Counted from the stretch's first letter, positions 13,841 through 50,311 are shown. The stretch is 64,000 nucleotides of DNA from Candidatus Shapirobacteria bacterium (GCA_020059745.1 JAGVBK010000003.1:1123-65122), one strand, 5' to 3'. The notes: generated from the sequence alone by a model not told the origin. A program made the numbers and translations.

Positions 13841-13927
13841 AAACCCTAAACCTCAAATCCTAAATCCTAATTTCTACTGCTTAGAGTTTTGTGTTTTGAA
13901 TTTAGAGTTTTAGGTTGATTTGGGTTT
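13841..13927. repeat. Imperfect palindromic element built from degenerate heptamers (TTTAGRG family); copy 1
   Basis: Left arm aaaccctaaacctcaaatcctaaatcctaa. Right arm cttagagttttgtgttttgaatttagagttttaggttgatttgggttt, roughly its reverse complement. It lies in the divergent region between the uvrA start and the small ORF at 14008. Confidence 0.6.
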
Positions 13928-14007
13928 CCTTTGGGACTTTTAATTATATCACTTTTAAGGCCGGTTTGGGTATTGTAAAAAGGGTTTTTTTATACTATCT
14001 TAAAACC

Positions 14008-14295
14008 ATGTTAACAAAGGATGATTTAAAAGAAATAAGGGGTGTAGTTAACGAAGAAGTAAGGGCAGAAATTGACCCTTTAAAGAAAGATGTTTCAGGT
14101 TTAAAATCTGATGTTTCAGGACTAAAGGCTAAAACAGCAACGATAGAAAAAGGAATGAAGACTTTGCAATCTGATGTTACAAGTATAAGAAAAGATGTAA
14201 AATCAATTGTATCGTTTTTTGACAGTGAATATTTGGAGTTGCGGAAAAGGGTAGAAAAGATAGAGCTTCATCTGGGTGTGAATTTTTCTTCATAG
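14008..14295 (+). CDS. Hypothetical small coiled-coil protein
   Basis: The track ORF starts at 13915. The likely start is the ATG at 14008 (MLTKDDLKEIRGVVNEE...), ~11 nt downstream of a TATACT -10-like box. It has heptad-like repeats (KKDVSGLKSDVSGLKAKTATIEKGMKTLQSDVTSIRKDVKS). Confidence 0.4.
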   Translation: MLTKDDLKEIRGVVNEEVRAEIDPLKKDVSGLKSDVSGLKAKTATIEKGMKTLQSDVTSIRKDVKSIVSFFDSEYLELRKRVEKIELHLGVNFSS

Positions 14296-14357
14296 TTTCT
14301 TGTCTTTTGCTCACTGCTTTGCTCGCTATTTGAGGCTAAAGGTGGTAAAATTCAGGC

Positions 14358-16343
14358 ATGGATTTTGAACTTGAATCAAGTTTTCAACCCACCGGAGACC
14401 AGCCTCAGGCAATTGAAAAATTAACTGAAGGAATTAAAAAAGACTATCCTTTTCAGGTTTTGCTTGGGGTAACTGGTTCTGGTAAAACTTTTTCCATTGC
14501 CAATGTCATTAAAAACACCAAAAAGCCGACTTTGGTGATTTCCCATAATAAAACCTTGGCTGCCCAGCTCTATCAGGAATTTAAAGAATTTTTCCCGCAA
14601 AATGCTGTTTCTTACTTTGTTTCCTACTATGATTATTACCAGCCTGAGGCTTACATTCCCCAAACAGATACCTATATCGCTAAAGATGCCGATATAAACG
14701 AAGAAATCGATAAGCTAAGGCTTCTTTCCACCAGCCATATATTTTCCCGGAAAGATGTTATTGTGGTAGCTTCAGTTTCCTGTATTTATAATATTGGCTC
14801 GCCTGACCAATACCGGAACCGAATTTTACATATTGCTCCGGGCCAGAAAATAAAAAGGGAAGATTTCATGTATTCCCTGGTTTCCCTTTATTATCAAAGG
14901 TCCAGGCTTGAATTTAGCCGTGGTTTTTTCAGAATCAGAGGTGAAGTTGTAGAAATTTATCCTTCCTATGCGGACGAGATTATTAAGGTTGAATGGAAAG
15001 ATGATGAAATTATCTCTGTCACCGTCAGGCCGGTTATTGAGGGTGAGGAAAAAGTTTTGGAAAACTATTTCCTTTATCCGGCAAAGCACTTTTTGGCGGA
15101 CAAAAAGATTATGGATGAAGCCTTTAAGCAAATTAAAGCAGATTTAAAAATTAGACTTAGCCAGCTTAAAAAAGAAGGCAAAGACCTCGAGGCAAACCGT
15201 TTAAACCAGAGAGTTAACTATGACATGGAGATGATAAAGGAAGTCGGTTATGTCAACGGTATTGAGAACTATTCTCGCTATTTTGACGGCAGGCTGCCGG
15301 GAGAGCCGCCTTTTTCTCTTCTTGACTATTTTAAATATCAGTATAAAGATGATTTTTTGGTGGTTATAGATGAGTCGCACATGACTGTGCCGCAAATAAG
15401 AGGAATGTATTACGGTGATGCCTCAAGGAAAAAAACTTTGGTGGATTTCGGTTTCAGGCTGCCTTCTGCTTTAGACAACCGGCCGCTTAACTTTCAGGAA
15501 TTTTTAAAAAGGGTGCCGCAAGCGATTTTTGTTTCCGCTACTCCCGATAGTTGGGAAATTGAAAAATCAGAAAAAAGAGTTACAGAGCAATTAATTAGGC
15601 CAACCGGGTTAGTGGATCCGGTGGTTGAAGTAAGGCCGATTCAGGGGCAGGTAAAAGACTTGGTTAAAGAAATCCTTGAAAGAAAGAAAAAAGGAGAAAG
15701 AGTTTTAGTTACCACCTTAACCAAAAGAATGGCTGAAGACTTAAGCACTTACCTTGCAGACCCTGCCAATACCGGAGAAAGGATTTTAGTCCACTACCTT
15801 CATGCCGATATTGACACTTTGGAAAGAACCGATATTTTGGCCGATTTAAGAAGAGGTACTTATGATGTAATTGTGGGAATTAACCTCTTAAGAGAAGGTT
15901 TGGATTTGCCGGAAGTATCTTTGGTGGCAATACTTGATGCCGATAAAGAAGGTTTTTTGCGTTCCCGCGTTTCTTTAATTCAGACCATGGGAAGGGCAGC
16001 GAGAAATTCGGCAGGCAAAGTAATTCTCTATGCCGATTATCAGACAGAAGCAATGAAACAGGCTTTAGCCGAGGTTAAAAGAAGAAGAAAAATTCAGGAA
16101 GAGTACAATAAAAAACACGGCATTGTTCCCCAAACAATAAACAAACCAATAAGGGAAGCTTTGGTAATTGAAGAAGAAGAGGAAGAACTTTCAGAAGACG
16201 GCATGACCCCGGCTGATGCCAAAAAACTGGTGGCAAAGCTAGGCAGACAAATGAGGGAGTATGCCAAACTCATGGAATTTGAAAGGGCAGCGCAGCTTAG
16301 GGATAAAATAGAGGAAGTTAAAAAGAAATTTGATTTAAGCTAA
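14358..16343 (+). CDS. uvrB: Excinuclease ABC subunit B
   Basis: 661 aa. Has the UvrB N-terminus (FQPTGDQPQAIEKLTEGI...GVTGSGKTF), helicase motifs, a beta-hairpin region (YYDYYQPEAY) and a C-terminal UvrC-interaction coiled coil. Confidence 0.97.
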   Translation: MDFELESSFQPTGDQPQAIEKLTEGIKKDYPFQVLLGVTGSGKTFSIANVIKNTKKPTLVISHNKTLAAQLYQEFKEFFPQNAVSYFVSYYDYYQPEAYIPQTDTYIAKDADINEEIDKLRLLSTSHIFSRKDVIVVASVSCIYNIGSPDQYRNRILHIAPGQKIKREDFMYSLVSLYYQRSRLEFSRGFFRIRGEVVEIYPSYADEIIKVEWKDDEIISVTVRPVIEGEEKVLENYFLYPAKHFLADKKIMDEAFKQIKADLKIRLSQLKKEGKDLEANRLNQRVNYDMEMIKEVGYVNGIENYSRYFDGRLPGEPPFSLLDYFKYQYKDDFLVVIDESHMTVPQIRGMYYGDASRKKTLVDFGFRLPSALDNRPLNFQEFLKRVPQAIFVSATPDSWEIEKSEKRVTEQLIRPTGLVDPVVEVRPIQGQVKDLVKEILERKKKGERVLVTTLTKRMAEDLSTYLADPANTGERILVHYLHADIDTLERTDILADLRRGTYDVIVGINLLREGLDLPEVSLVAILDADKEGFLRSRVSLIQTMGRAARNSAGKVILYADYQTEAMKQALAEVKRRRKIQEEYNKKHGIVPQTINKPIREALVIEEEEEELSEDGMTPADAKKLVAKLGRQMREYAKLMEFERAAQLRDKIEEVKKKFDLS

Positions 16344-16597
16344 TGGGAAAAATTTTTGAAAGAATTTACGAAGAAGTAAAAAAAATCCCCAAAGGAGAGA
16401 CAAGAAGTTATGGCGAAATTGCCAGAAAAGCAGGTACTACTCCTCGCGTGGTTGGTTTTGCCTTACACGCTAACCCTGATCCCAAAAATATTCCTTGCCA
16501 CAGGGTAATTTTCAAAGACGGTAGGCTTTCTCCAGGTTATGTTTTTGGAGGAGAAGGAGTGCAAAGAAAAAAACTGGAAGAAGAAGGCGCTATTTAA
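16343..16597 (+). CDS. Methylated-DNA-protein-cysteine methyltransferase (MGMT/Ogt) DNA-binding/active-site domain protein, stand-alone
   Basis: 84 aa with an HTH region (YGEIARKAGTTPRVVGFAL) and active-site motif PCHRV. Its start codon overlaps the uvrB stop (TAATG). Confidence 0.7.
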   Translation: MGKIFERIYEEVKKIPKGETRSYGEIARKAGTTPRVVGFALHANPDPKNIPCHRVIFKDGRLSPGYVFGGEGVQRKKLEEEGAI

Positions 16598-17987
16598 CCA
16601 ATACCAATATTCTTTCCCCTTCTTTTTTAATAACTTGATAATCCTTTGGACTGATGTTTTCTCTGTCCAAGAGCCATTGTTTGGTCAAAAGCAAAAATGG
16701 CCTGTCTGATTTTTCAAAAGCTTGAGCTGAGGTTTTAATTGTTGTATCGGTTGAATGGGGCAGGCTGTAAACTTTTTTTCCTGAATAGAAAACTGCAGCC
16801 GGCCAATAATCATCTTCAAGGTAAATGGTTCCTTCGTATTCCCCTGCTTTTCTGGAAAGGCTGACTTCATCACTGAAAGACTGAGATTTAACCAAATCAT
16901 GAAAAAGACCTTTGACGATTCTTCCCGAATTCCAAACACAAAAGGCAAGCATTAAAAAAACCGCAAGTCTTTTATCAAATTTCGCTCCGATTTTATAAAT
17001 AAAAGCAGGAATAAAAAGAGAAAGTGTGGGATAAAGAATAATTAGGTGCCAAAGCTCAGCCTTAGGCGAGGTGGCAAAGACAAGGAAATACACGAAAAAC
17101 CATAGCCAGAGAAGTTGAAAAGATTTTTGTTTGATGAATAAAAGCGATCCCAATAAAGAGACTAAAAAGGGTTTATACCAAAGTAAAACTCCCATATGAA
17201 GCTCCCAAAGCGTGTTTTTAAGATAAAACCCCTTGCTTGAAGTTAAATTTCCCAAAGATTTCATACCCGGAAGTCTTAAGCCAATGACAAAAATATTGCG
17301 GTTAATAAATAAAAGTCCATAAGCCAGGTAATTAACAACATACCAAGGAAGAAAAATAGCAAAAAACGGAACAAAGAAAAAGAAAATATCTTTTATTTCC
17401 TTTTTTGGGCAGCCGAAATAAAGAAAAAAAAGAACCGGAATCAAGCCAACTCCGATAACTGTTTTGGTAAGCAAAGCCAGGGCAAAAGCCGTACCTGCTC
17501 CTATTAAAAAAAGCCGGCTCTCTTTTGCTTTAAGCATAAAAAAGAGGGCAAGAAGCATGTTAAAGGTAAGAACAATATCCAAATTACCTTCTCTTGCCCT
17601 TAACCAAAACCAGGGAAAGACACTAAGGGAAAGCCCGGCAGCAAAACCTACAGCTCGGTTAAAGAGTTTTTTGCCAATTAGGTAAGAAAGAAGTACAGAA
17701 CCAATACCTGCCAGTGCCGAAGGCAGTCGGGCTGACATCTCACTGACTCCAAAGAGTTTAAAAGAAAGCGAGGTAAGCCAAAAACCTAAAGGTGGGTGGT
17801 CAAAATAGGGAAGACCGTTCCATTTAAGCAAAAACCACTGATTGTCTTTAACAATATTGCGGGAAATTTCTGCATACCAGGCTTCGTCCCAGCTTTTTAA
17901 AGGAGTGTCTCCCAGTTTTGAGAGAAACAAAAGACCTGTTAAAACAACCAAAATTAAAGGCAGAAAAAAGAAGGCTTTGTTCTTCAC
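16590..17987 (-). CDS. GT-C fold membrane glycosyltransferase, ArnT/PMT_2 (GT39/GT83-like) family
   Basis: 465 aa and multi-pass. First extracytoplasmic loop SKLGDTPLKSWDEAWYAEISRNI carries the DE(A)xY acidic motif typical of polyprenol-phosphate-sugar-dependent GT-C enzymes. Confidence 0.65.
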   Translation of the reverse strand: MKNKAFFFLPLILVVLTGLLFLSKLGDTPLKSWDEAWYAEISRNIVKDNQWFLLKWNGLPYFDHPPLGFWLTSLSFKLFGVSEMSARLPSALAGIGSVLLSYLIGKKLFNRAVGFAAGLSLSVFPWFWLRAREGNLDIVLTFNMLLALFFMLKAKESRLFLIGAGTAFALALLTKTVIGVGLIPVLFFLYFGCPKKEIKDIFFFFVPFFAIFLPWYVVNYLAYGLLFINRNIFVIGLRLPGMKSLGNLTSSKGFYLKNTLWELHMGVLLWYKPFLVSLLGSLLFIKQKSFQLLWLWFFVYFLVFATSPKAELWHLIILYPTLSLFIPAFIYKIGAKFDKRLAVFLMLAFCVWNSGRIVKGLFHDLVKSQSFSDEVSLSRKAGEYEGTIYLEDDYWPAAVFYSGKKVYSLPHSTDTTIKTSAQAFEKSDRPFLLLTKQWLLDRENISPKDYQVIKKEGERILVLVK

Positions 17988-18060
17988 TAAATTTTATTAT
18001 AGCTCACTCTCTGGTGACAATTTGTCAAGAGCTTGAAATTTAGCTATTATGAAAATAAGT

Positions 18061-19443
18061 ATGGAAACCAAAGAACTGCCTAAAGCCCCTTCTTTTTGGA
18101 AAATAATCGGGCCTTCTTTTATCTTTCTTGGTTTATCTCTTGGTAGCGGCGAGCTTGTTTTGTGGCCGTATATGGCAGCCAATTATGGTTTGGGAATTTT
18201 ATGGGGGGCGCTTTTAGGAATTACTTTCCAGTTTATTATGAATATGGAAATTGAGCGATACGCTTTGGTGCGCGGGGAGAGTGTTTTTGTCGGTTTCTGG
18301 AAACTGGGGCGCTATTGGTCGCTTTGGTTTATTCTTTCCACTTTTATTGCCTGGGGATTACCCGGTTTTTCCGCTGCCGGCAGCCAGCTCTTAAACCAGC
18401 TTTTTGGTTTTGCCAACGAGACGCTGGTGGCGGTAATCTTGCTCTTGCTTACGGGTTTGATTTTAAGCATCGGCAAAACCCTATACCGGACCATGGAGGT
18501 TTTACAAAAATCAATTATTATTTTCGGGACGATTTTTATCTCGCTTTTGGTCTTTCTTTTAACAAAATTAACTGATTGGCAAGCAGCCGCTTTTGGTCTT
18601 ATCGGCCAGGGAGAGGGTTACCGCTTTCTTCCGGCGGGAATTTCTTTTATGAGTTTTTTGGGTGCCTTTGCTTACGCGGGAGCAGGCGGAAACCTCAACT
18701 TGGCCCAAAGCTATTATGTTAAAGAAAAAGGATACGGCATGGGAAAATACAGCCAAAAGATAAAAAGTCTTTTTGCCAAAGGCGGCAGCGATGTTAGCCT
18801 TAAGGGCACGACTTTTGAAAACAACAAAGCAAGCCGTTTTGAGTTTAAAAAATGGTGGAGGGTGATTAATTTAGAGCATTTTTTTGTTTTCTGGCTTTTG
18901 GGGTTTTTGACAATTACCCTACTTGCTGTTTTATCTTATTCACTTGTTCACGGAGAAGCAGGTGTTAAAGAGGGGATAAACTTTCTTTTTATGGAAAGCC
19001 AGATAATCGGCCAAAAAGTTACCCCTGTTTTTGGGTTTGTTTTTCTCCTTCTTGGCTTCATGATGCTTTATTCAACCCAAATCGGGGTACTCGAATCAAC
19101 TTCAAGGATAATTTCGGAAAATTTCTTTCTCCTTTCTCAGGGCAAAAGCAGCGAGCTTAAAGTGAACCTTTCCAAACTTTTTTATCTTGCTCTTTGGGGT
19201 CAGATAACTTTTGGCATCAGTGTTCTTCTTTTGGGCTTTAAAGAGCCAAGACTTCTTTTAACCTTAGCTGCAGTAATTAATGCTTTTTGCATGTTTGTTC
19301 ACCTTGGACTTACTTACTTTTTAAACAAGAAAATGCTTCCTTCAGAACTAAGACCGGCTCTTTGGAGAAAAGCAATATTGCTAATTGCTTTTATTTTCTT
19401 TGGTGTCTTCTCCTTTTTAACGCTCCGGCAAGGTTTGAGGTAA
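18061..19443 (+). CDS. Multi-pass membrane transporter, Nramp-like (tentative)
   Basis: The track start at 18049 overlaps a TATTAT -10 box. The second ATG at 18061 (METKELPKAP...) is the more likely start. It has ~11-12 TM helices, and the N-terminal GLSLGSGELVLWPYMAANYG motif is reminiscent of the Nramp/MntH first helix. Family assignment is uncertain. Confidence 0.4.
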   Translation: METKELPKAPSFWKIIGPSFIFLGLSLGSGELVLWPYMAANYGLGILWGALLGITFQFIMNMEIERYALVRGESVFVGFWKLGRYWSLWFILSTFIAWGLPGFSAAGSQLLNQLFGFANETLVAVILLLLTGLILSIGKTLYRTMEVLQKSIIIFGTIFISLLVFLLTKLTDWQAAAFGLIGQGEGYRFLPAGISFMSFLGAFAYAGAGGNLNLAQSYYVKEKGYGMGKYSQKIKSLFAKGGSDVSLKGTTFENNKASRFEFKKWWRVINLEHFFVFWLLGFLTITLLAVLSYSLVHGEAGVKEGINFLFMESQIIGQKVTPVFGFVFLLLGFMMLYSTQIGVLESTSRIISENFFLLSQGKSSELKVNLSKLFYLALWGQITFGISVLLLGFKEPRLLLTLAAVINAFCMFVHLGLTYFLNKKMLPSELRPALWRKAILLIAFIFFGVFSFLTLRQGLR

Positions 19444-19479
19444 GCTGGTATAATATTTATAGCTAAAAGCTAATTTAGT

Positions 19480-19920
19480 ATGGCCAGGAAAAGCAGTAAT
19501 TTTGATAAATTCAAAAGCTCGGTTTTGACAATTGTTTCCGGTGTTGCTTTTGTCTTTATTCTTTGGATGCTTTTATACGGTAAAATCAAAGCTACCGGGC
19601 TTCTCTCTCCAATTATAGGCAGGTTGCCTAAAAACGAGGAAGCCTTGGTGGATACAACCGAAGATATTTTAGGGACTGCGGTGCAAAAGGCCAAAGACGG
19701 TGGAGTAAAGCGGACAGTGGAAAGAGGAAGCGAAGTTTTTGAAGAATCAAAATACGCTGAGCCTGCCAGAGACTTAAGAGACGATGTAAGGGAAAAAATT
19801 GACGGTGCGGTTGAATCAGCCAAAGAATTGCCTGCCAAAGAGCTGAAGCTTGTTCAGAAGGAAATTTGCACACAATGGTTTGGGGACGAAATATTTATTG
19901 CCACTGATAGCGGCGAATGA
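19480..19920 (+). CDS. Hypothetical membrane-anchored protein
   Basis: 146 aa with an N-terminal TM helix (VLTIVSGVAFVFILWMLLYG) and a charged soluble domain. No family was recognised. Confidence 0.4.
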   Translation: MARKSSNFDKFKSSVLTIVSGVAFVFILWMLLYGKIKATGLLSPIIGRLPKNEEALVDTTEDILGTAVQKAKDGGVKRTVERGSEVFEESKYAEPARDLRDDVREKIDGAVESAKELPAKELKLVQKEICTQWFGDEIFIATDSGE

Positions 19921-20034
19921 AACCCTAAGTTCTAAATCCAAATCCTAAATAATTTTCAAAACCCAAAATTTATATTTAAAAATTTGAATTTGCTTAGAGT
20001 TTAGAATTTAGTGTTTAGGATTTCCCCAAAGGGG
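19921..20034. repeat. Imperfect palindromic heptamer-repeat element; copy 2, plus CCCCAAAGGGG mini-hairpin
   Basis: Left arm aaccctaagttctaaatccaaatcctaaat, then a 43-nt AT-rich spacer, then right arm cttagag TTTAGAA TTTAGTG TTTAGGA, then CCCCAAAGGGG. It sits immediately upstream of prfB. Confidence 0.6.
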
Positions 20035-20039
20035 ATTTT

Positions 20040-21125
20040 ATGGAAGAAATTGTCCAAAAAATTGAGGAACTTAAAAAAAGGCTTGAGTTTTTGGTAGCCA
20101 AGCTTAATGTTGAAGACAAAAGGAAAGAAATAAAAAGCTTGGAGGCGGAAGCGGCCCGGCCCGGTTTTTGGGATGACCCCGGTCAGGCGCAGGCCAAAAC
20201 AAAACTTCTCTCCTTATATAATGAAGAGCTGTCAAAGGTTCAAGAATATGAAGAAAAAATTAATTCCCTTAAAGAGCTTGCTTCTTCAGAAGATGCTTCA
20301 GAACTTCAGGAGGACTTGAAAAAAGAAGTTGACAGCCTCGAAAAAGCAATGGAAAAGCTTGAGATAAGCACTTATCTTAGCGGCCCTTATGATCGTTCTT
20401 CTGCCATTGTTTCCATTCATGCGGGTCAGGGCGGAACAGAAGCGATGGATTGGGCCCAGATGCTTGAAAGAATGTATGTTCGCTTCGCAGAAAAAAGGAG
20501 TTGGAAAGTTGATGTTGTCGACGAAATTGCCGGAGACGAGGCGGGAATTAAAAGCGCAACGCTTTCCGTAGAAGGACCTTTTGCCTACGGATACCTTAAA
20601 GGCGAAAGAGGAGCGCATCGCCTGGTCAGACAATCTCCTTTTAATGCCGACAAGCTAAGGCAGACTTCTTTTGCTTTAGTGGAGGTTTTGCCGGAAATCG
20701 AGGAAGCGGAAAAAATTCCCATTCCTGATTCTGATATTGAATGGGATTTTTTTAGGGCTTCTTCTCACGGCGGCCAAAATGTTCAAAAAGTTTCCACGGC
20801 TGTAAGATTAAGGCACCTTCCCACCGGAATTGTGGTAACCAGCCAAAGTGAACGCTACCAGGAAAGAAACAGAGAAATTGCCCTAAACCTTTTAAGATCA
20901 AAGCTCTGGCAGCTTGAAGAGGAAAAGAAAGAAAGAGAGAGAAAAGACCTCAAAGGCGAGTTTAAGCTGGCAGCCTGGGGAAACCAGATTCGCTCTTATG
21001 TGCTTCATCCTTATAAAATGGTTAAGGATTTAAGAACTGAGTATGAAGTCAATGACCCTTTCTCTGTTTTAGACGGAAACCTGGACGGATTTATTGAGGC
21101 TGAACTTAAAACTCTTAAAGATTAA
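20040..21125 (+). CDS. prfB: Peptide chain release factor 2 (single ORF, no programmed frameshift)
   Basis: 361 aa with an SPF tripeptide (stop-codon recognition, RF2-specific) and a GGQ motif (SSHGGQNVQKVSTAVRLRHLPTGIVV). The N-terminus aligns with full-length RF2 in one frame. Confidence 0.9.
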   Translation: MEEIVQKIEELKKRLEFLVAKLNVEDKRKEIKSLEAEAARPGFWDDPGQAQAKTKLLSLYNEELSKVQEYEEKINSLKELASSEDASELQEDLKKEVDSLEKAMEKLEISTYLSGPYDRSSAIVSIHAGQGGTEAMDWAQMLERMYVRFAEKRSWKVDVVDEIAGDEAGIKSATLSVEGPFAYGYLKGERGAHRLVRQSPFNADKLRQTSFALVEVLPEIEEAEKIPIPDSDIEWDFFRASSHGGQNVQKVSTAVRLRHLPTGIVVTSQSERYQERNREIALNLLRSKLWQLEEEKKERERKDLKGEFKLAAWGNQIRSYVLHPYKMVKDLRTEYEVNDPFSVLDGNLDGFIEAELKTLKD

Positions 21126-21215
21126 TTTTATACTTGTCCTTTCATTCTTTTCTGTGCTATTCTTTATTCAGCCAGGAGGTCGCCTTTATTAATTTTGGCC
21201 GACAAAAGGAGAAAA

Positions 21216-21668: not shown

Positions 21669-21705
21669 ACGAAGAAAGTTATTCTTCGTGGCAGTTTAAA
21701 CTGCA

Positions 21706-22416
21706 ATGATTATTTTTGATAAAGTCAGCAAAAAATTTGGAAGCATTATTGCTTTAGAGGATGTTTCTTTCACTCTGGAAAAGGGTGAGTTTGTTTTTCT
21801 TACCGGTGCTTCCGGGGCCGGAAAAACCACTTTGATAAAACTTCTTTTAGGTGAGTACTTGCCTTCTGCCGGTGAAATTGAAATGAATGGCGAAAAAGTT
21901 TCCAAGGTTTCAAAGAAAAATCTTTATCTTTGGCGGAGAAAGCTTGGGGTTGTTTTTCAAGACTACAAGCTTTTTTGGGATAAAACAGTGGCTGAAAATG
22001 TTGCCTTGCCTTTGGAAATAATAAAAACGCCGGCAAAAGAAATTGGGGAAAAAGTGCAAAAAATACTTGAACTTGTAGGGCTGGAGGAAAGAAAAAGCCT
22101 CTTTCCCGCCCAACTTTCCGGCGGTGAACTGCAAAGGGTTTCTTTGGCCAGAGCGGTTATTACTGCTCCGGAGATTTTACTTGCAGATGAACCTACCGGC
22201 AACTTGGACCCCAAAACCTCAAAGGAAATGATAAGGCTCTTTAAAGAGATAAACGAAAAAGGAACAACCATCTTAATGGCTACCCATAACAATGAGATTG
22301 TTGATTCCTTTAAAGCTCGGGTAATTGAGCTTGAAAAAGGTAAGGTGGCAAGAGACGAAAAGGAAGGAAAATACTATAAAGATAAAAAGAAGGAAAAAGA
22401 GGAGGATGATGATTAA
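21706..22416 (+). CDS. ftsE: Cell division ATP-binding protein FtsE
   Basis: Walker A GASGAGKTT, ABC signature LSGGELQRV, Walker B LLADEPTGNLD. It has an unusual C-terminal Lys/acid-rich tail (KDKKKEKEEDDD). Confidence 0.9.
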   Translation: MIIFDKVSKKFGSIIALEDVSFTLEKGEFVFLTGASGAGKTTLIKLLLGEYLPSAGEIEMNGEKVSKVSKKNLYLWRRKLGVVFQDYKLFWDKTVAENVALPLEIIKTPAKEIGEKVQKILELVGLEERKSLFPAQLSGGELQRVSLARAVITAPEILLADEPTGNLDPKTSKEMIRLFKEINEKGTTILMATHNNEIVDSFKARVIELEKGKVARDEKEGKYYKDKKKEKEEDDD

Positions 22417-23278
22417 AACCGCTAAGGATCATATAGTAAGATCGCCCTACCAGTCTTTAGCTGCAATTTTTGTCTTAACGCTTTCGCTTTTTCTCTTAAG
22501 CGCCTTTTTTCTTATCGGCTCTGGCTCACAGGTAATTTTGCGCCATTTTGAGTCAAGGCCTCAGGTCAGCGCCTACCTAAAAGACGAGGCAGCAACACAA
22601 GACATCGATCTTGTTAAGGCAAAAATTCAAGGCAACCCTAAGGTTAAAAAAATTGAATTCATTTCCAAGGAGCAGGCGCTTGAGCTTTACAAAGAACAAA
22701 ACAAGGATAAGCCTTTGCTTTTGGAAATGGTTTCCGCAAAAATTCTTCCCGCCAGTCTTGAGGTTTCCACCTATGATCTTTCTTCCCTTAAAAGCGTTGC
22801 TGAAACCTTAAAACAGGAAGAGATGGTTGAGGATGTTGTTTACCATGAAGATGTTGTTTCTTCTCTTTCAAACTGGATGGCCACTGTAAGAAAGTTTGGT
22901 TTGGGGGTGGCGGTTTTTCTTTTAACCATTGCCATAATGACAATTCTTATCATTTTAGGGATGAAGATATCCCAAAGAAAAGAAGAGATTGAAATCTTAA
23001 AGCTTTTGGGGGCTTCACCGCTTCATATTTGCGCCCCTTTCTACTTTGAAGGGGTGATATACGGGGTTTTGGCGGCTTTTATTTCTTGGGGGTTAAGCTA
23101 TGGGGCAATTTTATTGTCAAGTTCATTTTTAACACAATTTTTAGCGGGAATACCGCTTTTGCCAGTTTCCCCGATTTTTATGCTTGAAGTTCTCGGCGGA
23201 TTGCTCTTTTTAGGAATTTTTGTGGGGTTTGTGGGTAGTGTCTTGGCGGTTTCTCGCTTCAGCAGAACAATTAGATGA
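22406..23278 (+). CDS. ftsX: Cell division permease FtsX
   Basis: The track ORF starts at 22325, but the ATG at 22406 follows a GGAGG RBS and overlaps the ftsE stop by 11 nt. Topology is TM1, a large extracytoplasmic loop, then 3 C-terminal TMs. Confidence 0.85.
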   Translation: MMIKTAKDHIVRSPYQSLAAIFVLTLSLFLLSAFFLIGSGSQVILRHFESRPQVSAYLKDEAATQDIDLVKAKIQGNPKVKKIEFISKEQALELYKEQNKDKPLLLEMVSAKILPASLEVSTYDLSSLKSVAETLKQEEMVEDVVYHEDVVSSLSNWMATVRKFGLGVAVFLLTIAIMTILIILGMKISQRKEEIEILKLLGASPLHICAPFYFEGVIYGVLAAFISWGLSYGAILLSSSFLTQFLAGIPLLPVSPIFMLEVLGGLLFLGIFVGFVGSVLAVSRFSRTIR

Positions 23279-24477
23279 AGCAGAAGATATTACTGATTCT
23301 TTTTTTTATTTTTCTCCAGATTTTTAGTTTCAGGATTGGAGTTTTTGCGGCCGAATGTACGACTCCAAGAGAGGGAGCTACCAGAGAGGAGCTTGAGGAT
23401 ATTATTCGTGCCTGTGAAGCCCAGATAGGCGAAACCAAAAAACAAGTAGACAGCCTTTCCAGAGAAATTGGCATTATTGACGGCCAAATCAGGGTAGCCC
23501 AGCTTAAAATTTCCCAAACAGAATACCAAATAAGAACGCTTGAGGAAGAAATAGTTAATCTTTCCGGAAAAATTGAGAGACTTGACGGTTCGCTTGACTA
23601 TCTTTCCAGAGTTCTTTTAGACCGGGTGGCCGAATCTTACAAAAGAAACAAAGTTGATGCCATAACCATCCTTTTTTCTTCAAGGAATGTTTCTGATTTT
23701 GTTGCCCGCTACCGGTATTTGCAAAAAATCCAGCTTCATGACCGGGAACTTCTTTTGTCAATGGAACAAACAAGGACCAGCTATGACGAGCAAAAAAGCC
23801 TGAAAGAGCAAAAGCAGGAAGAGCTGGAAAAGCTGCAAGCCCAGCTTTTGACGCAAAAAAAGCAGCTTGATATTCAAGTGGCAAACAGGAAAAGAATCCT
23901 TGAGGAAACCAGAGGAAAGGAAGCAGTTTACCAGCAATTTCTTGCTAGCGCCAAAGGAGAACTAGAGGCCATCCTGGGAATTTTGGAGGGCAAGGGAAGA
24001 GAAGAAAGAATAAAAGATGTTTCCGAAGGCGAAAAAATTGCCTCAGTTATTTACGGAGCCTCATGTAATTCAAATGGTACACACCTTCATTTTATGATCA
24101 CTAAAGACGGCAAGCCCTTAAACCCTTTTAGCTATCTTAAGGGAGGTATTAATTATGAAAACTGTTCCGGTTCTTCCTGCGGCAGCGCGGACGCTGATCC
24201 TTTTAATCCGCAAGGTGATTGGGGCTGGCCTTTAAATGAAAAAATCAGGCTCACTCAAGGTTACGGTTATACCTGGGCAATTCAACACATTCCCTGGTTA
24301 AGGGCAATTTATACTTTTCATAATGGTATTGATTTGCAGGGAGGAAGCTTAGATGTTAGAGCAACAAAAAAAGGTGCTCTTTATTGGGGAAGTTATGTGG
24401 GAAGGTGCACTTTAAAGTATGTTAAAGTGGAGCATGAAGACGGCTTCAGTTCCTACTATCTTCATGTAAACTACTGA
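23275..24477 (+). CDS. Coiled-coil M23-family peptidase (EnvC-like FtsEX partner)
   Basis: 400 aa with a signal peptide, a ~250-aa coiled coil, and a C-terminal M23/LytM-like domain with HxH (GTHLHFMITKDGKPLNPF). Gene order ftsE-ftsX-envC is conserved. Confidence 0.7.
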   Translation: MKQKILLILFFIFLQIFSFRIGVFAAECTTPREGATREELEDIIRACEAQIGETKKQVDSLSREIGIIDGQIRVAQLKISQTEYQIRTLEEEIVNLSGKIERLDGSLDYLSRVLLDRVAESYKRNKVDAITILFSSRNVSDFVARYRYLQKIQLHDRELLLSMEQTRTSYDEQKSLKEQKQEELEKLQAQLLTQKKQLDIQVANRKRILEETRGKEAVYQQFLASAKGELEAILGILEGKGREERIKDVSEGEKIASVIYGASCNSNGTHLHFMITKDGKPLNPFSYLKGGINYENCSGSSCGSADADPFNPQGDWGWPLNEKIRLTQGYGYTWAIQHIPWLRAIYTFHNGIDLQGGSLDVRATKKGALYWGSYVGRCTLKYVKVEHEDGFSSYYLHVNY

Positions 24478-25338
24478 TGAGCAGATTTTTAAATAAACTA
24501 CCTTTTTTAGTTTTTTTTCAACTCCTGTTCCTCTTTTCTTTAGCAAAAACTTCCTATGCTCAGGTAGTGATTAATGAATTTGTTTTTGATCCGACAAATG
24601 ACCAAAACGAGTGGGTGGAATTATATAATATGGGTACAGAGACAGTTAATCTTCAAGGTTGGCAAATTTCCGATAAGCTTAGTTCTCCCCATGTTCACTC
24701 TCTTGATAGTCTCGGCTCCATTCCTTCTGATGGGTTTGTAGTTTTTGAATACCAATCTGGAGACGGTTGGCTTAATAATGATGCCGATACGGTTATTCTT
24801 AGGGATAAACGAGGGTAATATCTTGGATGAAAAAGAGTATTCCTCAAATCCGGGAGAAGGAAAATCTTACGGTAGAAGCCCAAATGGTACAGGAGGTTTT
24901 ATTGTTTATGATGCTGCTTCGGTTTCAAAAGGTGTGGTAAACCCTACTCCTACAGAAGTTCCTACCCCCACCCCAACTCCCCAGCCAACGGAGGTTCCGA
25001 CTGAAGCACCAGAGCCAACAGCAACCCCAACCCCTGAGCCGACTTTAACCCCTACTCCCACGACAAAGCCGACAACTAAGCCTTCACCGACTCCAACACC
25101 AGATAAAGAACCGGAAATGGTAACTACCAGCTTCGACGGACCTCAGGGCGAAGTTTTGGGTAGCGAGTCCTCTCCAACAGGACCAGACGAACTCGAAGAC
25201 ATAAAAGCTCTTTATTCCCCTCCGGAAAAGAAAAAATCAATTCTTCTTCCGATTTTTTTAATCGGTGGCGGCGGAGTATCTATTTTCTTTTCAGTTCTTT
25301 CTTTTCTTAAAAAGGAAGAAGGTGAGGAAGTTGCTTAA
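24477..25338 (+). pseudogene. Lamin-tail-domain (LTD) surface protein with Pro/Thr-rich stalk and C-terminal TM anchor, interrupted by a 1-nt frameshift
   Basis: Frame A (24477..24818) holds the signal peptide plus the LTD N-half (VVINEFVFDPTNDQNEWVELYNMGTETVNLQGWQISD...DTVILRD). The +1 frame continues from ~24802 ([27 protein letters not shown]), then [25 protein letters not shown]..., then a TM ([23 protein letters not shown]). The junction is in the A-run gggataaacgagg. Confidence 0.6.
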
Positions 25339-25382
25339 TTTCTTGTCTTTTAAACTAATAAATAATATAGTTAATTTTACCA

Positions 25383-25799
25383 ATGGTTAAAGTTCTTAAA
25401 GATATTTTATATATCTTGCCTCCGCTTTTATGGATGGCTTTAATTTATTACCTTTCTTCGTTTAACAGGCTTCAGGCTTCCGAAATAGGCTGGCAGGATT
25501 TTGTTCTAAGAAAAGGGGCTCATTTTGCCGAATATGCAATTCTTTTTGTTTTAATTTACCGGGCCTTTAATTTTATGACCAGGCTTTCTTTAGCTGACAA
25601 GCTTTTTTTTACCTTTTTCCTAACAGTTTTGTATGCCCTGACAGACGAATATCACCAAACCTGGGTTTTGGGGAGAACCGGAAAGCTTTTTGATGTTATG
25701 GTGGACACTTCGGGGGCAGTTTTTGGCTTTGTTTTTTCTGCTAAATTAATTTACCGCTTGCCAATAAGTATGCAAAGATTTATTCTAAAAAAGTCATGA
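25383..25799 (+). CDS. VanZ-like family membrane protein
   Basis: 138 aa, 4 TM. Motif YALTDEYHQTWVLGRTGKLFDVMVDTSGAVFGF matches VanZ-like (DE.HQ...GR...D...D..G). Confidence 0.7.
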   Translation: MVKVLKDILYILPPLLWMALIYYLSSFNRLQASEIGWQDFVLRKGAHFAEYAILFVLIYRAFNFMTRLSLADKLFFTFFLTVLYALTDEYHQTWVLGRTGKLFDVMVDTSGAVFGFVFSAKLIYRLPISMQRFILKKS

Positions 25800-26779
25800 A
25801 AGTTTTAGTTACCGGTGGCGCCGGGTACATAGGTTCACATACGGTTGCCGAGCTGCAAAAGCAAAACATTGAAGTAGTGGTTTTTGACAATTTGATTTGC
25901 GGCCATAAAGAAGCGGTTACGTGTCCTCTAATTGTCGGCGATCTTCTTAAAAAAGATGAGATTAAAAAAGTTTTTAAGGAGAATAAGTTTGACGGGGTAA
26001 TCCATTTTGCCGCTTATGCCCTGGCCGGAGAATCGATGAAAGAGCCGGCAAAATATTTTGAAAACAATCTCCAGGGCGGGCTTAATCTTCTTGAAGCTAT
26101 GAGAGAGGGTGAAGTTAATAAAATTGTTTTTTCTTCCACTTGTGCAATTTACGGCTATCCGGATAAACTGCCGGTTATTGAAGAGGAAAGCAAAAAGCCG
26201 GTCTCTGTTTATGGGGAATCTAAGCTTATGTTTGAAACCATTCTTCGCTGGTATGACCAGCTTTTCGGAATAAAAAATGTTTGTCTTAGATACTTTAACG
26301 CCAGCGGCGATTCTTTGGACGGCTCAATTGGTGAAGACCACAAACCGGAAACTCATATTATTCCTATTGCCATGCAAGCTGCCTTAGGCCAAAGGGAAAA
26401 ATTCTCAATTTTCGGGGAAGACTACAATACTCCTGACGGCACCTGTATTCGCGACTACATTCATGTTTTGGATTTGGCCTCTGCCCACATAAAAGCGCTT
26501 GATTATTTATCTAAAGAAGGAGAAAGCAATTATTTTAATGTCGGTACCGGCCAGGGCTATTCAAACAAAGAAATTCTCAACATGGTTAAAGAGGTAACAG
26601 GGGTTGATTTTCCGGTTGAAGTTGGGCCGAGAAGAGAGGGAGACCCGGATGCAATTTTTGCGGACAGTTCAAAGGCAAAAACGGTTTTAGGCTGGGAGCC
26701 AAAGCACTCTGATCTTAAGACAATTATTGAGTCAGCCTGGAAATGGCACAAAAGCCACCCCAAGGGCTATTCTTCCTAA
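25796..26779 (+). CDS. galE: UDP-glucose 4-epimerase
   Basis: 327 aa. Has the Rossmann motif [13 protein letters not shown], the SSTCAIYG region and the YGESK catalytic motif (YxxxK). Confidence 0.9.
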   Translation: MKVLVTGGAGYIGSHTVAELQKQNIEVVVFDNLICGHKEAVTCPLIVGDLLKKDEIKKVFKENKFDGVIHFAAYALAGESMKEPAKYFENNLQGGLNLLEAMREGEVNKIVFSSTCAIYGYPDKLPVIEEESKKPVSVYGESKLMFETILRWYDQLFGIKNVCLRYFNASGDSLDGSIGEDHKPETHIIPIAMQAALGQREKFSIFGEDYNTPDGTCIRDYIHVLDLASAHIKALDYLSKEGESNYFNVGTGQGYSNKEILNMVKEVTGVDFPVEVGPRREGDPDAIFADSSKAKTVLGWEPKHSDLKTIIESAWKWHKSHPKGYSS

Positions 26780-26870
26780 GCAAGCGCTTTCTTCTTACCA
26801 AGTTATTACTTCTTTTTAAGAAGCTTCATAAACCGTTAAGGTTTAATGAATTTTGAAGCTAAAAACACTC

Positions 26871-26898
26871 TTGACAAGAAAATTTTTTTTGGTATTTT
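26871..26898 (+). promoter_or_regulatory. Sigma70-like promoter with extended -10 (TTGACA-N16-TGgTATTTT) upstream of hsp20
   Basis: TTGACA at 26871-26876, TG at 26890-26891, TATTTT at 26893-26898. An AGGAGGTG RBS sits 8 nt before the ATG at 26922. Confidence 0.45.
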
Positions 26899-26921
26899 TT
26901 AAATTAAAGGAGGTGATATAG

Positions 26922-27344
26922 ATGGCGATAGTAAGATGGGAACCATCAGGTTTAACCAGAAGAATTTTAGATTGGCCTTTTTTATTCAGTGATGAGGAAA
27001 TGCCAATGGCAATAAGGCAGGGCCTTGACATTTATGAAACAGAAAACGAGGTAGTTGTTAAAGCTCCTGTTCCCGGAGTTTTGGAGGACGAGGTTGATGT
27101 GACTTTTGAAAACGGAGTTTTAAGAATTCAGGCCAGGCACGAAGAAACCGACAAGGAAAAGGAAGAAAAAAGAACTGTTTACCAGCAGCAAAGAATTGTA
27201 TCTTTTGACTACACAACTACTCTGCCGCGTTCGGTTGATCCAGACAAAATTTCAGCTGAAGTGGAGAACGGCGTTGTCGTTGTTAAGGCGCCAATTGCCG
27301 AAGAAGCAAAGCCGAGAAAAATTGCCATTAAAGGAAGAAGATAA
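26922..27344 (+). CDS. Hsp20/alpha-crystallin family small heat-shock protein
   Basis: 140 aa. Alpha-crystallin domain (LDIYETENEVVVKAPVPGVLEDEVDVTFENGVLRIQARHEE...) and a C-terminal I-x-I-like motif (KIAIKG). Confidence 0.9.
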   Translation: MAIVRWEPSGLTRRILDWPFLFSDEEMPMAIRQGLDIYETENEVVVKAPVPGVLEDEVDVTFENGVLRIQARHEETDKEKEEKRTVYQQQRIVSFDYTTTLPRSVDPDKISAEVENGVVVVKAPIAEEAKPRKIAIKGRR

Positions 27345-27365
27345 ACTACCTTTTTTTCTGTGATA

Positions 27366-27395
27366 AGCAGGAAGGATTTCCTTCCTGCTTTTAAA
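27366..27395. terminator. Bidirectional rho-independent terminator (10-11 bp stem AGCAGGAAGG/CCTTCCTGCT, T-run)
   Basis: Sequence aagcaggaaggatttccttcctgcttttaaaa lies between the convergent hsp20 (+) and small membrane ORF (-). Confidence 0.65.
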
Positions 27396-27537
27396 ATGCC
27401 AAAATGCCTAGACCGATAAGACCGATAAGAATAAGATAAATCCCTACTAAAGTTGAAAGCAGTCTGGGATTAAACAGAATTAGAACTCCGAAAACAAGGG
27501 ATAAAATCGGGCTTAAATTCACTAAGGTTAATCTCAT
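27391..27537 (-). CDS. Small hydrophobic membrane protein (48 aa), not in the ORF track
   Basis: Minus strand encodes MRLTLVNLSPILSLVFGVLILFNPRLLSTLVGIYLILIGLIGLGILAF*. It has an AAGGGGG RBS 6 nt upstream and a TTGACT-N16/17-CATAAT promoter (forward coordinates 27584-27589 and 27562-27567). Confidence 0.45.
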   Translation of the reverse strand: MRLTLVNLSPILSLVFGVLILFNPRLLSTLVGIYLILIGLIGLGILAF

Positions 27538-27683
27538 TTAGCCCCCTTTCTTTTAGAGAAATTATGAATGGCTGCCAAACGAGAGTCAAGCAATCTTCTT
27601 TCTTGACAGCAGTTAGTAAAAAATTATATATCATAAAATATAGCAATTAATTTCTTCTGCCCAATCATTACTTACGAAAGGAG

Positions 27684-28040
27684 GTGAAAGAAATGACTTC
27701 AACTGAAAGACGTATCCCTGACGATGGAGTTGCAGAAACACTAAGCCCCATTGCTAGAATGAAAGATTTGAAAGAAAGATTAGGAACAGCGGTTAAAAGC
27801 CCGGAATGGGAAATTGCTGACGATGAAGGAAGAAAGGAAATAATGGAAGGAGTGCTTGGTCAATCTTTGGAGTACTATACCGAAAACGGATACCGAGATA
27901 AAACTGAAGAACTAACCAGGATTCTTGGCCAGTTTAAGGAAGGAGCTATTGGAGTTGAGGTAATTGTTGATACTGCCATGCCGCAAGAAAATAATGGTGT
28001 CAAAAAGAAGGGTTTTTTGACTCTTTTTAGACGCCGTTAA
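27684..28040 (+). CDS. Hypothetical cytoplasmic protein
   Basis: 118 aa with a strong RBS (AAGGAGGTG). A TTGACA(27603-27608)-N16-TATATA promoter lies upstream. No family was recognised. Confidence 0.45.
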   Translation: MKEMTSTERRIPDDGVAETLSPIARMKDLKERLGTAVKSPEWEIADDEGRKEIMEGVLGQSLEYYTENGYRDKTEELTRILGQFKEGAIGVEVIVDTAMPQENNGVKKKGFLTLFRRR

Positions 28041-28105
28041 ACTGGCTTTGTTAATATTATAGAGGGCTTTGGCAAGCTCTCTGTAATATGGAGTAAAATG
28101 GATTT

Positions 28106-28732
28106 ATGATCCATCTTCCTGCAAAAAAAATTGTTAATGTCTTTTCTTTGTTAATTATTTTTTTAGGAATTGGAATTTTGCTTCTTACTTTTGGCAGCCC
28201 TCTTTTTTATGAAGTTCAATATCAGGCAAAAACCATTGCCAAGCCTGGAGCGCAAGAACAAAAGAATAAAGAGATAGTTCCTGTGAATGCAGACTTTTCA
28301 ATTGTAATTCCTAAAATTAACGCTAATGCTCCGATTTTTCCCAACGTTAACCCTTTTGAAGAAAAAGAATTTTCTCCAGTTTTAAAAAAGGGAGTTGCCC
28401 ATGCCAAAGGAACTTCTTTTCCCGGCAACAACAAAAACATTTATCTTTTTGCCCATTCAACTGATGTTTTTTTTAATGTCGGCCGATATAATGCCGTTTT
28501 TTATCTTATTGGAAAACTTGAAAACGGAGATGAAATCGACATTTATTATAGGGAGGGACTTTTTAAATATAAGGTGTTTGAGAAAAAGATTGTTTCTCCG
28601 GAAGCAGTAAATTATCTGGAAATCGGAGATGAAGAAATACTTACTCTTCAGACTTGTTATCCTCCGGGAACAACTCTCAAAAGGCTGGTAGTAAGAGCCA
28701 GTCCCTCGGAAGCACTAAATTCAAAATACTAA
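28106..28732 (+). CDS. Sortase (transpeptidase) family protein
   Basis: 208 aa with an N-terminal TM anchor. It has a His-containing motif (LFAHSTD), the signature TLQTC catalytic Cys motif and a downstream Arg (LKRLVVRA). Confidence 0.8.
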   Translation: MIHLPAKKIVNVFSLLIIFLGIGILLLTFGSPLFYEVQYQAKTIAKPGAQEQKNKEIVPVNADFSIVIPKINANAPIFPNVNPFEEKEFSPVLKKGVAHAKGTSFPGNNKNIYLFAHSTDVFFNVGRYNAVFYLIGKLENGDEIDIYYREGLFKYKVFEKKIVSPEAVNYLEIGDEEILTLQTCYPPGTTLKRLVVRASPSEALNSKY

Positions 28733-28749
28733 GCTCTAAATAAACACAA

Positions 28750-29106
28750 ATGGCCCAAACTCAAAAAACAAAATTTGATTTAGATGAAAGAACATTTAAG
28801 TTTGCGAAGGAAGTTGTTAATTTTGTTAAAGGTTTGCCTCATAATATTTCTAATATTGAAATTGTAAAACAATTAGTCAGGTCTTCCGGATCGGTTGGGG
28901 CAAATTACATTGAAGCAAGCGAATCTTTAAGCAGGAAAGATTTTCTAATGAGGATCAAAATTTGTAGGAAAGAAGCCAAAGAAAGCGTTTATTGGTTAAG
29001 GTTATTGACTTGTTTGGCTGAACAAGAAACAGAAAGAGAGGCTTTGATAATAGAGGGAATCGAGTTAACGAAAATTTTCGGCTCAATTGTCGAGAAATCA
29101 AAATAA
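28750..29106 (+). CDS. Four-helix-bundle protein (23S rRNA intervening-sequence protein family)
   Basis: 118 aa. The pattern FKFAKEVVNFVKGLPHN...QLVRSSGSVGANYIEA...RKDFLMRIKICRKEAKESVYWLRLL is typical of the family. Confidence 0.85.
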   Translation: MAQTQKTKFDLDERTFKFAKEVVNFVKGLPHNISNIEIVKQLVRSSGSVGANYIEASESLSRKDFLMRIKICRKEAKESVYWLRLLTCLAEQETEREALIIEGIELTKIFGSIVEKSK

Positions 29107-29130
29107 TTTGAACTTTTGGTTTTGAAATTA

Positions 29131-29165
29131 TTTAGAGTTTAGGATTTAGGGTTTAGTGTTTAATA
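29131..29165. repeat. Tandem heptamer array TTTAGAG TTTAGGA TTTAGGG TTTAGTG TTTAATA; copy 3 of the intergenic repeat family
   Basis: Five head-to-tail heptamers lie directly upstream of the promoter of the giant adhesin gene. An adjacent aatttgaacttttggttttgaaatta segment resembles the spacer of copy 2. Confidence 0.6.
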
Positions 29166-29174
29166 AAATAGTTC

Positions 29175-29203
29175 TTGACAAGTCCTATAATCTCCTCTAT
29201 ATT
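29175..29203 (+). promoter_or_regulatory. Sigma70-like promoter TTGACA-N17-TATATT for the giant surface protein gene
   Basis: TTGACA at 29175-29180 and TATATT at 29198-29203. No obvious SD precedes the ATG at 29235. Confidence 0.45.
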
Positions 29204-46118: not shown

Positions 46119-46161
46119 CTCTTGTTTATTTTAACACGGCAGTTATGCTATATTTAAATTA

Positions 46162-46177: not shown

Positions 46178-46201
46178 TCTATAGTTCTTGAAAGGAAAAA
46201 A

Positions 46202-50309: not shown

Positions 50310-50311
50310 AT

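Follow-up and report, generated by a model that had tools for sequence, protein, structure and literature searches.

The DNA analysed here, called the window throughout, is a stretch of 64,000 nt from a Candidatus Shapirobacteria bacterium (GCA_020059745.1, JAGVBK010000003.1:1123-65122), in which arrays of a degenerate heptamer of the type TTTAGNN occur at three loci. Direct reading of the sequence confirmed all three, and the array coordinates given in the original prediction are correct. Copy 1 sits in the 5′ leader of uvrA (minus strand, start 13831), within the spacer that separates this gene from a divergent 95-aa open reading frame (ORF; start 14008). Copy 2 is inserted between the stop codon of a 146-aa ORF (19918-20) and the prfB ribosome-binding site, and copy 3 lies between a sortase gene and an adhesin gene. 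Copies 1 and 2 are imperfect palindromes with about four TTTAGNN heptamers in each arm, and both the sequence and a register alignment agree with their first description as paired inverted arrays. Copy 3 had been described as a clean, lone head-to-tail array. Its heptamers (TTTAGAG TTTAGGA TTTAGGG TTTAGTG TTTAATA) are present, but they are not alone: an inverted partner lies at 28706-28749, and between the two there is a 118-aa ORF for a four-helix-bundle protein. This gene, which had been missed, is the key to the nature of the repeats.

The cassette and its derivatives in the window

Copy 3 and its partner thus delimit one complete cassette of about 475 bp (28699-29173). With high probability, the heptamer palindromes represent the inverted arms at the ends of this small cassette and of its ORF-less derivatives. 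The features, with the evidence for each, are given below; the arm HMM is a hidden Markov model of cassette arms, and L numbers denote loci in other genomes.

28699..28749, plus strand: left (upstream) arm of the complete cassette (complementarity, arm HMM, empty site L096, filled site L094)
28750..29106, plus strand: cassette gene, 118-aa four-helix-bundle protein (matches to PF05635, TIGR02436 and PDB 2RLD; purifying selection)
29107..29173, plus strand: right (downstream) arm, the "copy 3" of the original prediction (complementarity, arm HMM, RNA fold; boundary from L096 and L094)
29175..29203, plus strand: host adhesin promoter TTGACA-17-TATATT, outside the element (promoter match; conserved at the empty site of a relative)
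19921..20026, minus strand: ORF-less copy 2 (arm HMM E 1e-10 and 4e-6, minus-strand fold, relative L093 without palindrome)
13841..13916, strand undecided: ORF-less copy 1 (two heptamer arrays about 9 nt apart; relative L116 empty)

The left arm of the complete cassette is built of CTAAA-type heptamers (GCACTAA ATTCAAA ATACTAA GCTCTAA) followed by ATAAACACAA immediately 5′ of the ATG, and its outer boundary is approximate (28699-28717). The right arm has an inner part, TTTGAACTTTTGGTTTTGAAATTA, then the array of five heptamers, and ends one base 5′ of the adhesin promoter region. Over 41 nt (28710-28750 against 29121-29161) the arms are 78% complementary, and in the RNA fold of 28695-29180 they pair as one long outer stem enclosing the ORF, alike in the minimum free energy and the centroid structure. 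The left arm also provides the final codons and the stop (28730-28732) of the sortase gene, and the location of the arrays, reported earlier as intergenic, is therefore not strictly so.

Copy 1 reads AAACCCTAAACCTCAAATCCTAAATCCTAA, about 9 nt, then CTTAGAGTTTTGTGTTTTGAATTTAGAGTTTTAGG; in copy 2, a short AT-rich spacer separates AAACCCTAAGTTCTAAATCCAAATCCTAAATAATTTTCAAAACCCAAAAT from TTTGAATTTGCTTAGAGTTTAGAATTTAGTGTTTAGGATTT. Seen from the minus strand, copy 2 has an arm of the upstream type, which ends in CTCTAAGCAAATTCAA, and after 15 nt an arm of the downstream type, which starts with TTTTGGGTTTTGAAAATTATTTAGG. The former is the conserved sequence found before the ATG of cassettes, and the latter closely resembles the stretch after the stop of copy 3, CTTTTGGTTTTGAAATTATTTAGAG. 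This order of parts indicates a cassette with its gene deleted. The predicted fold of copy 2 reaches -29.8 kcal/mol on the minus strand (z -3.4) versus -23.6 on the other strand. Copy 1 keeps the heptamer arrays alone, and its orientation is not decidable. Of its originally proposed span, 13841-13927, the part up to about 13916 stands as the element, while "GATTTGGGTTTCC" from about 13917 is host sequence which is also found at the empty site of a relative. Judged by their sequences, copies 1 and 2 are derivatives of a larger cassette which have lost the ORF.

When both strands were scanned for (TTTAGNN)4 with a period of 7 (maximum score 20), all scan windows with scores of 17-20 fall at the loci of the three copies. 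Scores of at least 15 were reached by 24 windows, overlapping ones counted, versus 2-9 per first-order Markov randomisation. The scan also detected the additional minus-strand array at 28706-28740 that had been overlooked. The six arms of the three copies align in register with the consensus TTTGAAATTAnTTAGAGTTTAGGATTTAGAGTTTAGGGTTTC, and a profile made from them found no further match within the window. The arm HMM was trained solely on right arms of cassettes from 29 other genomes, and the six window arms are its top six matches in the window (E = 1e-10, 5e-9, 4e-6, 7e-4, 1.5e-3 and 0.34). Because this independent model ranks them best, the window palindromes are homologous to cassette arms of unrelated phyla. 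A compositional artefact is ruled out by this ranking together with the Markov randomisations. An Rfam scan of the window yielded no known RNA family at gathering thresholds and no rRNA.

The connection with telomere-type TTTAGGG repeats that had been drawn for the heptamer was not borne out. The arrays have 4-5 degenerate units, form short internal inverted pairs amid housekeeping genes and depend on the host, the heptamer being TTTCGGA, TTTGGAA, TTTGTTA or TTTTGAA in other genomes; this rules out a telomere relic.

The 118-aa product matches PF05635 (23S_rRNA_IVP; E 1.9e-14, 54.2 bits versus a cutoff of 33.8) and TIGR02436 (four helix bundle protein; 73.7 bits versus a cutoff of 24), and its nearest solved structure is PDB 2RLD, a five-chain entry from Bacteroides (E 5e-14). 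Comparison with L094 (window 28750-29106 against L094 1613-1969) gave a nonsynonymous divergence (pN) of 0.011 and a synonymous divergence (pS) of 0.139, indicating purifying selection. In the same genome pair, pS is 0.385 for the sortase and 0.70 for the adhesin. The low pS of the cassette suggests a later exchange of the cassette between lineages or additional sequence constraints. The opening eight or so codons of most such ORFs, including those of the window copy (28750-28775; also L010-L088), continue the heptamer pattern, ATGACCGAAATTCAAAATTCAAAA.

Homologues are numerous: there were about 8000 scored matches, the best 120 at 57-96% identity, and 7027 protein clusters (50% identity) at E<=1e-3, 1423 of them at E<=1e-10. 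Named sources include Wolfebacteria, Scalindua, Omnitrophica, Deltaproteobacteria and a bin labelled Euryarchaeota. The protein had no PADLOC match, and its identity as a defence system was dropped. No relative of this protein subfamily was found among IMG/VR viral contigs, and a phage origin was dropped as well.

No promoter-like match precedes the cassette ORF in the window copy, and inspection of the printed flanks by eye showed no Shine-Dalgarno motif 5′ of the ATG. The scanned window ORFs included no gene for a transposase, an integrase, a reverse transcriptase or RNase III.

Filled and empty sites in relatives

Comparison of orthologous loci revealed presence/absence polymorphism for every copy, with empty sites in L116, L093 and L096 for copies 1, 2 and 3, respectively. 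Since relatives have empty sites at all three positions, the three window copies are, on sequence comparison, insertions.

The empty site of copy 1 in L116 is CAT-TTAA-GATTTGGGTTTTGTTTGG (CAT-TTAA-GATTTGGG), and the filled site in the window is CAT-AATATTTAAAAA-palindrome-GATTTGGGTTTCCTTTGG. At the orthologous position of L114 (376-440), AATTTGAATTTGA is followed by about four TTTAAAA units; this AT-rich array may represent the element in a decayed or AT-shifted form. For copy 2, a metagenome scan with the 146-aa ORF returned one relative. In L093, where this ORF is 80% identical, just 15 nt, ...GAAAACTAACAATGAAGGGGCTTT-ATG, stand before prfB, with no palindrome.

The site of copy 3 was found both empty and filled. 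In L096 (sortase 79% identical), the sortase stop is followed by 6 nt and then by the adhesin promoter, CTTGACA...TATATT. In L094/L095 (sortase 88% identical), the left arm and the ORF are intact and the right heptamer array is deleted; L094 1969-1998, the orthologue of window 29107-29173, reads GGTTTTGAAATT-GTTG-CTTGACA, so that the whole right array has been lost. The sortase C-terminus differs accordingly between the states: it is ...VVRAKPE before the stop at the empty site of L096 versus ...VVRASPSEALNSKY (SPSEALNSKY) before the stop in the window, where the tail is altered because the left arm encodes it. The motif AAAAC(C/T)A..AATGA is present in both L096 735-760 (GCAAAACCAGAATGA) and L093 1025-1050 (GAAAACTAACAATGA), which may be a target preference or, with n=2, chance.

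These comparisons bear on the view that the arrays are host sequences, either slippage repeats or operators for uvrA, prfB and the adhesin gene, as had been proposed when they were taken for 5′ regulatory regions or binding sites of a regulator. Their placement directly upstream of genes is positionally true: both the start codon of uvrA and the ribosome-binding site of prfB have an array within 6-15 nt. The repeat number also differs among relatives. However, this placement is misleading, for the arrays are the ends of insertions, and relatives which have the same genes without arrays keep the same promoter or ribosome-binding site. The arrays are also homologous to cassette arms from unrelated phyla. 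The copy 3 array is upstream of the adhesin promoter as a part of the cassette, and because that promoter (29175-29203) is outside the element and conserved at the empty site of L096, the arrays are not upstream regulatory regions of these genes. The host regulatory explanation is largely refuted and retains hardly any probability.

Two other early candidates fared better. A REP/MITE-like mobile element (repetitive extragenic palindrome; miniature inverted-repeat transposable element) came closest, given the insertion/deletion polymorphism and the origin of copies 1 and 2 as ORF-less derivatives of a larger element. A recombination hotspot is partly supported: the arrays are unstable, as the deleted right array of L094 and the ORF-less internal deletions in several genomes demonstrate.

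Among the neighbouring genes, prfB (20040-21125) is one uninterrupted ORF of 361 aa with PCRF and RF-1 domains, for which no programmed +1 frameshift is needed. Further along the window, the genes in 46145-62679 form a long series on one strand and encode membrane glycosyltransferases of the PMT/PMT_2, GT2 and PTPS-related kinds. The best matches of the sortase and of the small ORF indicate a member of the Patescibacteria (Woesebacteria/Shapirobacteria-like).

The same architecture in other genomes

The comparison set consisted of 80 loci on contigs chosen as one genome per species, with proteins 56-71% identical to the window protein, and 75 nt upstream and 85 nt downstream of each ORF were inspected. 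The hosts are Ignavibacteria, Desulfobacterota, Chloroflexi, Omnitrophota, Patescibacteria, Planctomycetota, Bacteroidota, Nitrospirota, Verrucomicrobia and others; altogether the same cassette architecture was found in more than 15 bacterial phyla, amid ordinary genes. None of 11 related loci examined had rRNA next to it. The general layout is about four CTAAA-type heptamers, AAACAAATTCAA-ATG, the ORF with its stop, TTTGAATTTG, and about four TTTAGNN heptamers. Almost everywhere the common upstream flank is ...AAATCCTAAATCCTAAACAAATTCAA-ATG and the downstream flank is stop-...TTTGAATTTGTTTAGGATTTAGAGTTTAGGATTT. Complementarity of the left and right flanks exceeds the 95th percentile of shuffled controls in 68 of 83 loci, and the number of repeats per arm has a mode of 4 and a range of 3-5.

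The heptamer type varies by lineage (TTTAGNN, TTTCGNN, TTTGGNN, TTTGTNA), but within a locus it is nearly always the same on both sides (55 of 59 classifiable loci). A more distant homologue on a Nostoc flagelliforme plasmid (39% identity) has (AATTCAA)4 before and (TTTTGAA)4 after the ORF. Heptamer class and protein tree agree: in 55/67 cases the nearest neighbour is of the same class, versus 0.43 expected, and therefore the arms and the gene are inherited as one unit.

In 55/60 loci the cassette gene has the same orientation as both neighbours, compared with 57% for ordinary gene triplets of the same loci (p = 4e-9). The gaps flanking it, about 76 and about 80 nt, are barely enough for the arms.

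ORF-less derivatives were also found in other genomes, a few kb from ORF-bearing cassettes, whose heptamer type they share:

L051, 2730-2884: ORF-less derivative, ATG and five codons retained
L075, 2595-2737: ORF-less derivative, ATG retained
L018, 2975-3090: ORF-less derivative

Given their position beside cassettes of the same type, the palindromes without ORF are products of internal deletion in cassettes, comparable to the origin of MITEs from transposons.

How closely have the two arms evolved together? In a register-anchored alignment of 24 mini-elements, changes on both sides occurred in 28/42 stem pairs versus 19.1 +/- 1.8 in shuffles, none of 500 shuffles reaching 28; this result speaks for co-evolution of the arms and is not proof of a functional helix, because the alignment had been fitted to the stem and is made of related sequences. 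When the partner is slid by 1-3 columns in these 24 elements, pairing falls from 81% to 22-54%. Within the heptamer, positions 1-5 (TTTxG) are paired in 88-99% of cases, with 90% versus 48% expected at position 4.

The regularity of the arms may also be explained by protein recognition, with a pentameric four-helix-bundle protein binding its own arrays (DNA or RNA) at about one repeat per subunit. Binding would then serve autoregulation, protection of the RNA or recruitment of a host enzyme, and the palindrome would be secondary. The usual four repeats per arm (3-5) fit such a pentamer, since 2RLD has five chains and Xcc0516 is a homopentamer (cited in PMC4990558). So do the conserved core motif with free spacer positions and the agreement of heptamer class with the protein tree. 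Position 115 of the protein tracks the heptamer class as well (mutual information 0.89 versus 0.51 for the null), but its signal, which accompanies a K118E swap, resembles that of a clade marker and not that of a residue that reads the heptamer; a single such residue was dropped from consideration. Furthermore, the heptamers that accompany similar proteins differ greatly (TTTAGGA, TTTGTTA, TTTTGAA and, in Coxiella, GACAGAT), and ORF-less copies persist in stretches without the gene nearby. We regard this explanation as improbable.

A transposon working at the DNA level is somewhat less improbable, though still unlikely. The arrays would be terminal inverted repeats, that is, rows of sites for a recombinase or transposase which acts in trans or is unrecognised; the four-helix-bundle protein would be cargo or an accessory, and the ORF-less copies true MITEs mobilised in trans. 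Such a transposon agrees with the insertion/deletion polymorphism of all three copies, with the match between ORF-less derivatives and the heptamer type of the local ORF-bearing copy, and with the conserved TTTxG core beside free positions 6-7. It also agrees with equal counts of G.U and A.C mismatches between the arms and with protein identities of 56-71% across many phyla, which imply horizontal spread. On the other hand, neither the cassette nor the scanned window has a gene for a transposase, an integrase or an HUH protein, none of the three comparisons of filled and empty sites showed a target-site duplication, and identical proteins were never found at two different sites. The strong bias towards the sense orientation is not required by a pure DNA model.

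Several loci depart from the general layout. In L058, L069, L083 and L091, either an array of the upstream (CTAAA/CCAAA) type follows the stop, or the flanks run as direct instead of inverted repeats; these may be tandem or nested elements. L106 has a long extra TTTGTTA array (2854-3075), 150-220 nt past the cassette. The same contig carries, 1.7 kb upstream of the cassette, a 199-aa gene (185-784) with a faint Y1_Tnp match and without flanking heptamers. In L043, an Omnitrophota contig, a c-di-GMP-I-GGC riboswitch (5762-5850, 62.5 bits) lies about 400 nt downstream of the cassette. Distant four-helix-bundle genes stand in the order cas2, four-helix-bundle gene, cas1 in L090 (Anabaena cylindrica pANACY.01) and csx2, four-helix-bundle gene, cas1 in L092 (Pseudanabaena galeata pPg_04), the latter with flank repeats of a longer period. 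Four-helix-bundle genes inside cas loci have been noted without explanation (PMC3936711), and L090 and L092 match that description.

A probable intervening-sequence-type element outside rRNA

Taking identity and mechanism together, the explanation we favour, with a probability of about 0.7, is a selfish cassette of the intervening-sequence (IVS) type which resides outside rRNA, in operons, and has MITE-like derivatives. The closest known systems are the IVSs of 23S rRNA with an S23p (PF05635) ORF, known from Leptospira and Coxiella. The IVS of Coxiella burnetii has 428-444 nt and an S23p ORF, and its terminal inverted repeats make up a 28-bp stem that RNase III cleaves; three heptameric repeats in tandem (GACAGAT), their number differing from strain to strain, stand just before the start codon (PMC4990558). 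PF05635 ORFs are also present in rRNA insertions of bacteria of the Candidate Phyla Radiation. The window element shares with these IVSs the protein family, a similar size (about 430-480 nt) and terminal inverted repeats that fold into a long stem around the ORF. It also shares heptamers at the start codon, which in Coxiella vary in copy number, the lack of an evident functional ribosome-binding site, and the existence of ORF-less forms. In contrast, it lies between, and slightly into, protein-coding genes (sortase, adhesin) and not in helix 25/45 of 23S rRNA, and its heptamer differs. Being outside rRNA, it is not a 23S IVS in the strict sense; every other feature that could be tested is common to both.

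For the mechanism we propose, tentatively and at somewhat less than even odds, pairing in the transcript followed by cleavage by RNase III. The cassette would be transcribed by read-through from the upstream host gene, and its two arms would pair in this transcript to form a long imperfect stem. RNase III would then cut the arm stem and free the cassette RNA from the host message, a step modelled by analogy on the rRNA-borne members, in which it has been shown experimentally in Coxiella, Leptospira and Salmonella. The two copies lacking the ORF would be relics, each leaving a hairpin behind, one in the leader of uvrA and the other in that of prfB.

A number of observations weigh against this reading. 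G.U (85) and A.C (91) mismatches between the arms are equally frequent under symmetric scoring, and hence selection on pairing in the sense transcript alone is not visible; the excess of G.U over A.C as a signature of sense-strand RNA was dropped. Heptamer positions 6-7 pair in 51% and 66% of cases versus 38% and 41% expected, barely above composition. Judging by the sequences, a conserved core of 5 nt in every 7, with two nearly free positions, would fit protein recognition or repeat homogenisation equally well as a helix, and the co-variation of the arms could come from their common descent. The stems of the ORF-less copies are just modestly more stable than shuffles (z -1.3 to -3.4). The orientation rule fails for the relics, copy 2 being antisense to its neighbours and copy 1 lying between divergent genes, and the intact ORF of L094 without a right array means that this array is dispensable in the short term. 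As to mobility, no target-site duplication is visible at the three filled/empty comparisons, but the relatives, with just 60-88% identity in the neighbouring proteins, are too diverged for a firm negative. Identical proteins P0103 and P0107, found in 18-19 contigs, are always in the same gene context; recent multi-site transposition was not caught and was dropped, each of the two proteins being confined to one context.

The favoured IVS-type cassette was also compared with four other kinds of elements. Like MITEs and REP elements or bacterial interspersed mosaic elements (BIMEs), the ORF-less copies are imperfect palindromes of 76-106 nt between genes which vary in presence among relatives and arise by internal deletion from a longer element. 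Unlike them, the parent element of the window encodes no transposase or REP-associated tyrosine transposase (RAYT), its arms are tandem heptamers and not a unique terminal sequence, and a target-site duplication was not seen. No Y1 (RAYT) transposase was found among the window ORFs scanned, and the RAYT link was dropped, the sole faint Y1_Tnp neighbour (in L106) having no flanking heptamers.

Inverted heptamer arrays have been described in Xanthomonas (GGGAATC), Nostoc (GGGGAYT) and as STRR repeats of cyanobacteria, with their function stated as unknown (Rehm et al. 2015, PMC4692102). There are 70-75 convergent array pairs per genome, and the heptamers are mostly intergenic and transcribed (PMC4692102). 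Those arrays and ours both consist of tandem heptamers, Xanthomonas and Nostoc also encode PF05635 proteins, and the Nostoc plasmid four-helix-bundle gene is array-flanked. However, the heptamers described there are different, G-rich and quadruplex-forming, and PMC4692102 draws no link to four-helix-bundle proteins.

Avd of diversity-generating retroelements is a pentameric four-helix bundle that binds nucleic acid (PMC10053308). It has the fold superfamily in common with the window protein, but the window gene stands alone between heptamer arms. Identity with this Avd was ruled out, as no reverse transcriptase domain was found in the window ORFs scanned; template and variable repeats were not searched for. 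Integron cassettes with attC resemble the element in having a promoterless single ORF, which has the orientation of its neighbours and is accompanied by an imperfect palindrome. They differ in that the palindrome halves of the window element flank the ORF instead of forming one 3′ attC, and there is neither an integrase nor a cassette array.

The literature search revealed no paper linking stand-alone four-helix-bundle genes to flanking inverted heptamer arrays; it did not cover most subscription journals and is thus not proof of novelty. What appears to be new here is an IVS-type element outside rRNA, in operons, with MITE-like derivatives and a very wide host range. An odd repeat has become a defined element with parts, boundaries and empty sites. 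For annotation, the element explains the changed C-termini of neighbouring proteins, such as the sortase tail, and hairpins in 5′ leaders, and it calls for caution when such arrays are read as regulatory sites or telomere relics.

The results suggest one element family, which would include the 23S rRNA IVSs with their mystery ORF, and thousands of stand-alone four-helix-bundle genes (also those in cas operons); the Xanthomonas and cyanobacterial arrays may belong to it as well. Should this be the case, the function of PF05635 and the spread of IVSs, open questions since 1993, would become testable in ordinary operons of cultivable hosts, beyond essential rRNA genes. A further-reaching proposal, which we consider speculative and of low probability, is a class of mobile single-gene cassettes with no recognisable transposase, spread over more than 15 phyla and thousands of protein clusters, in which an Avd-like pentamer acts on the arms, as DNA or RNA, for insertion, excision or maintenance through a hitherto undescribed mechanism. 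If true, such a class would also explain the 23S rRNA IVSs and the inverted heptamer arrays of Xanthomonas and cyanobacteria.

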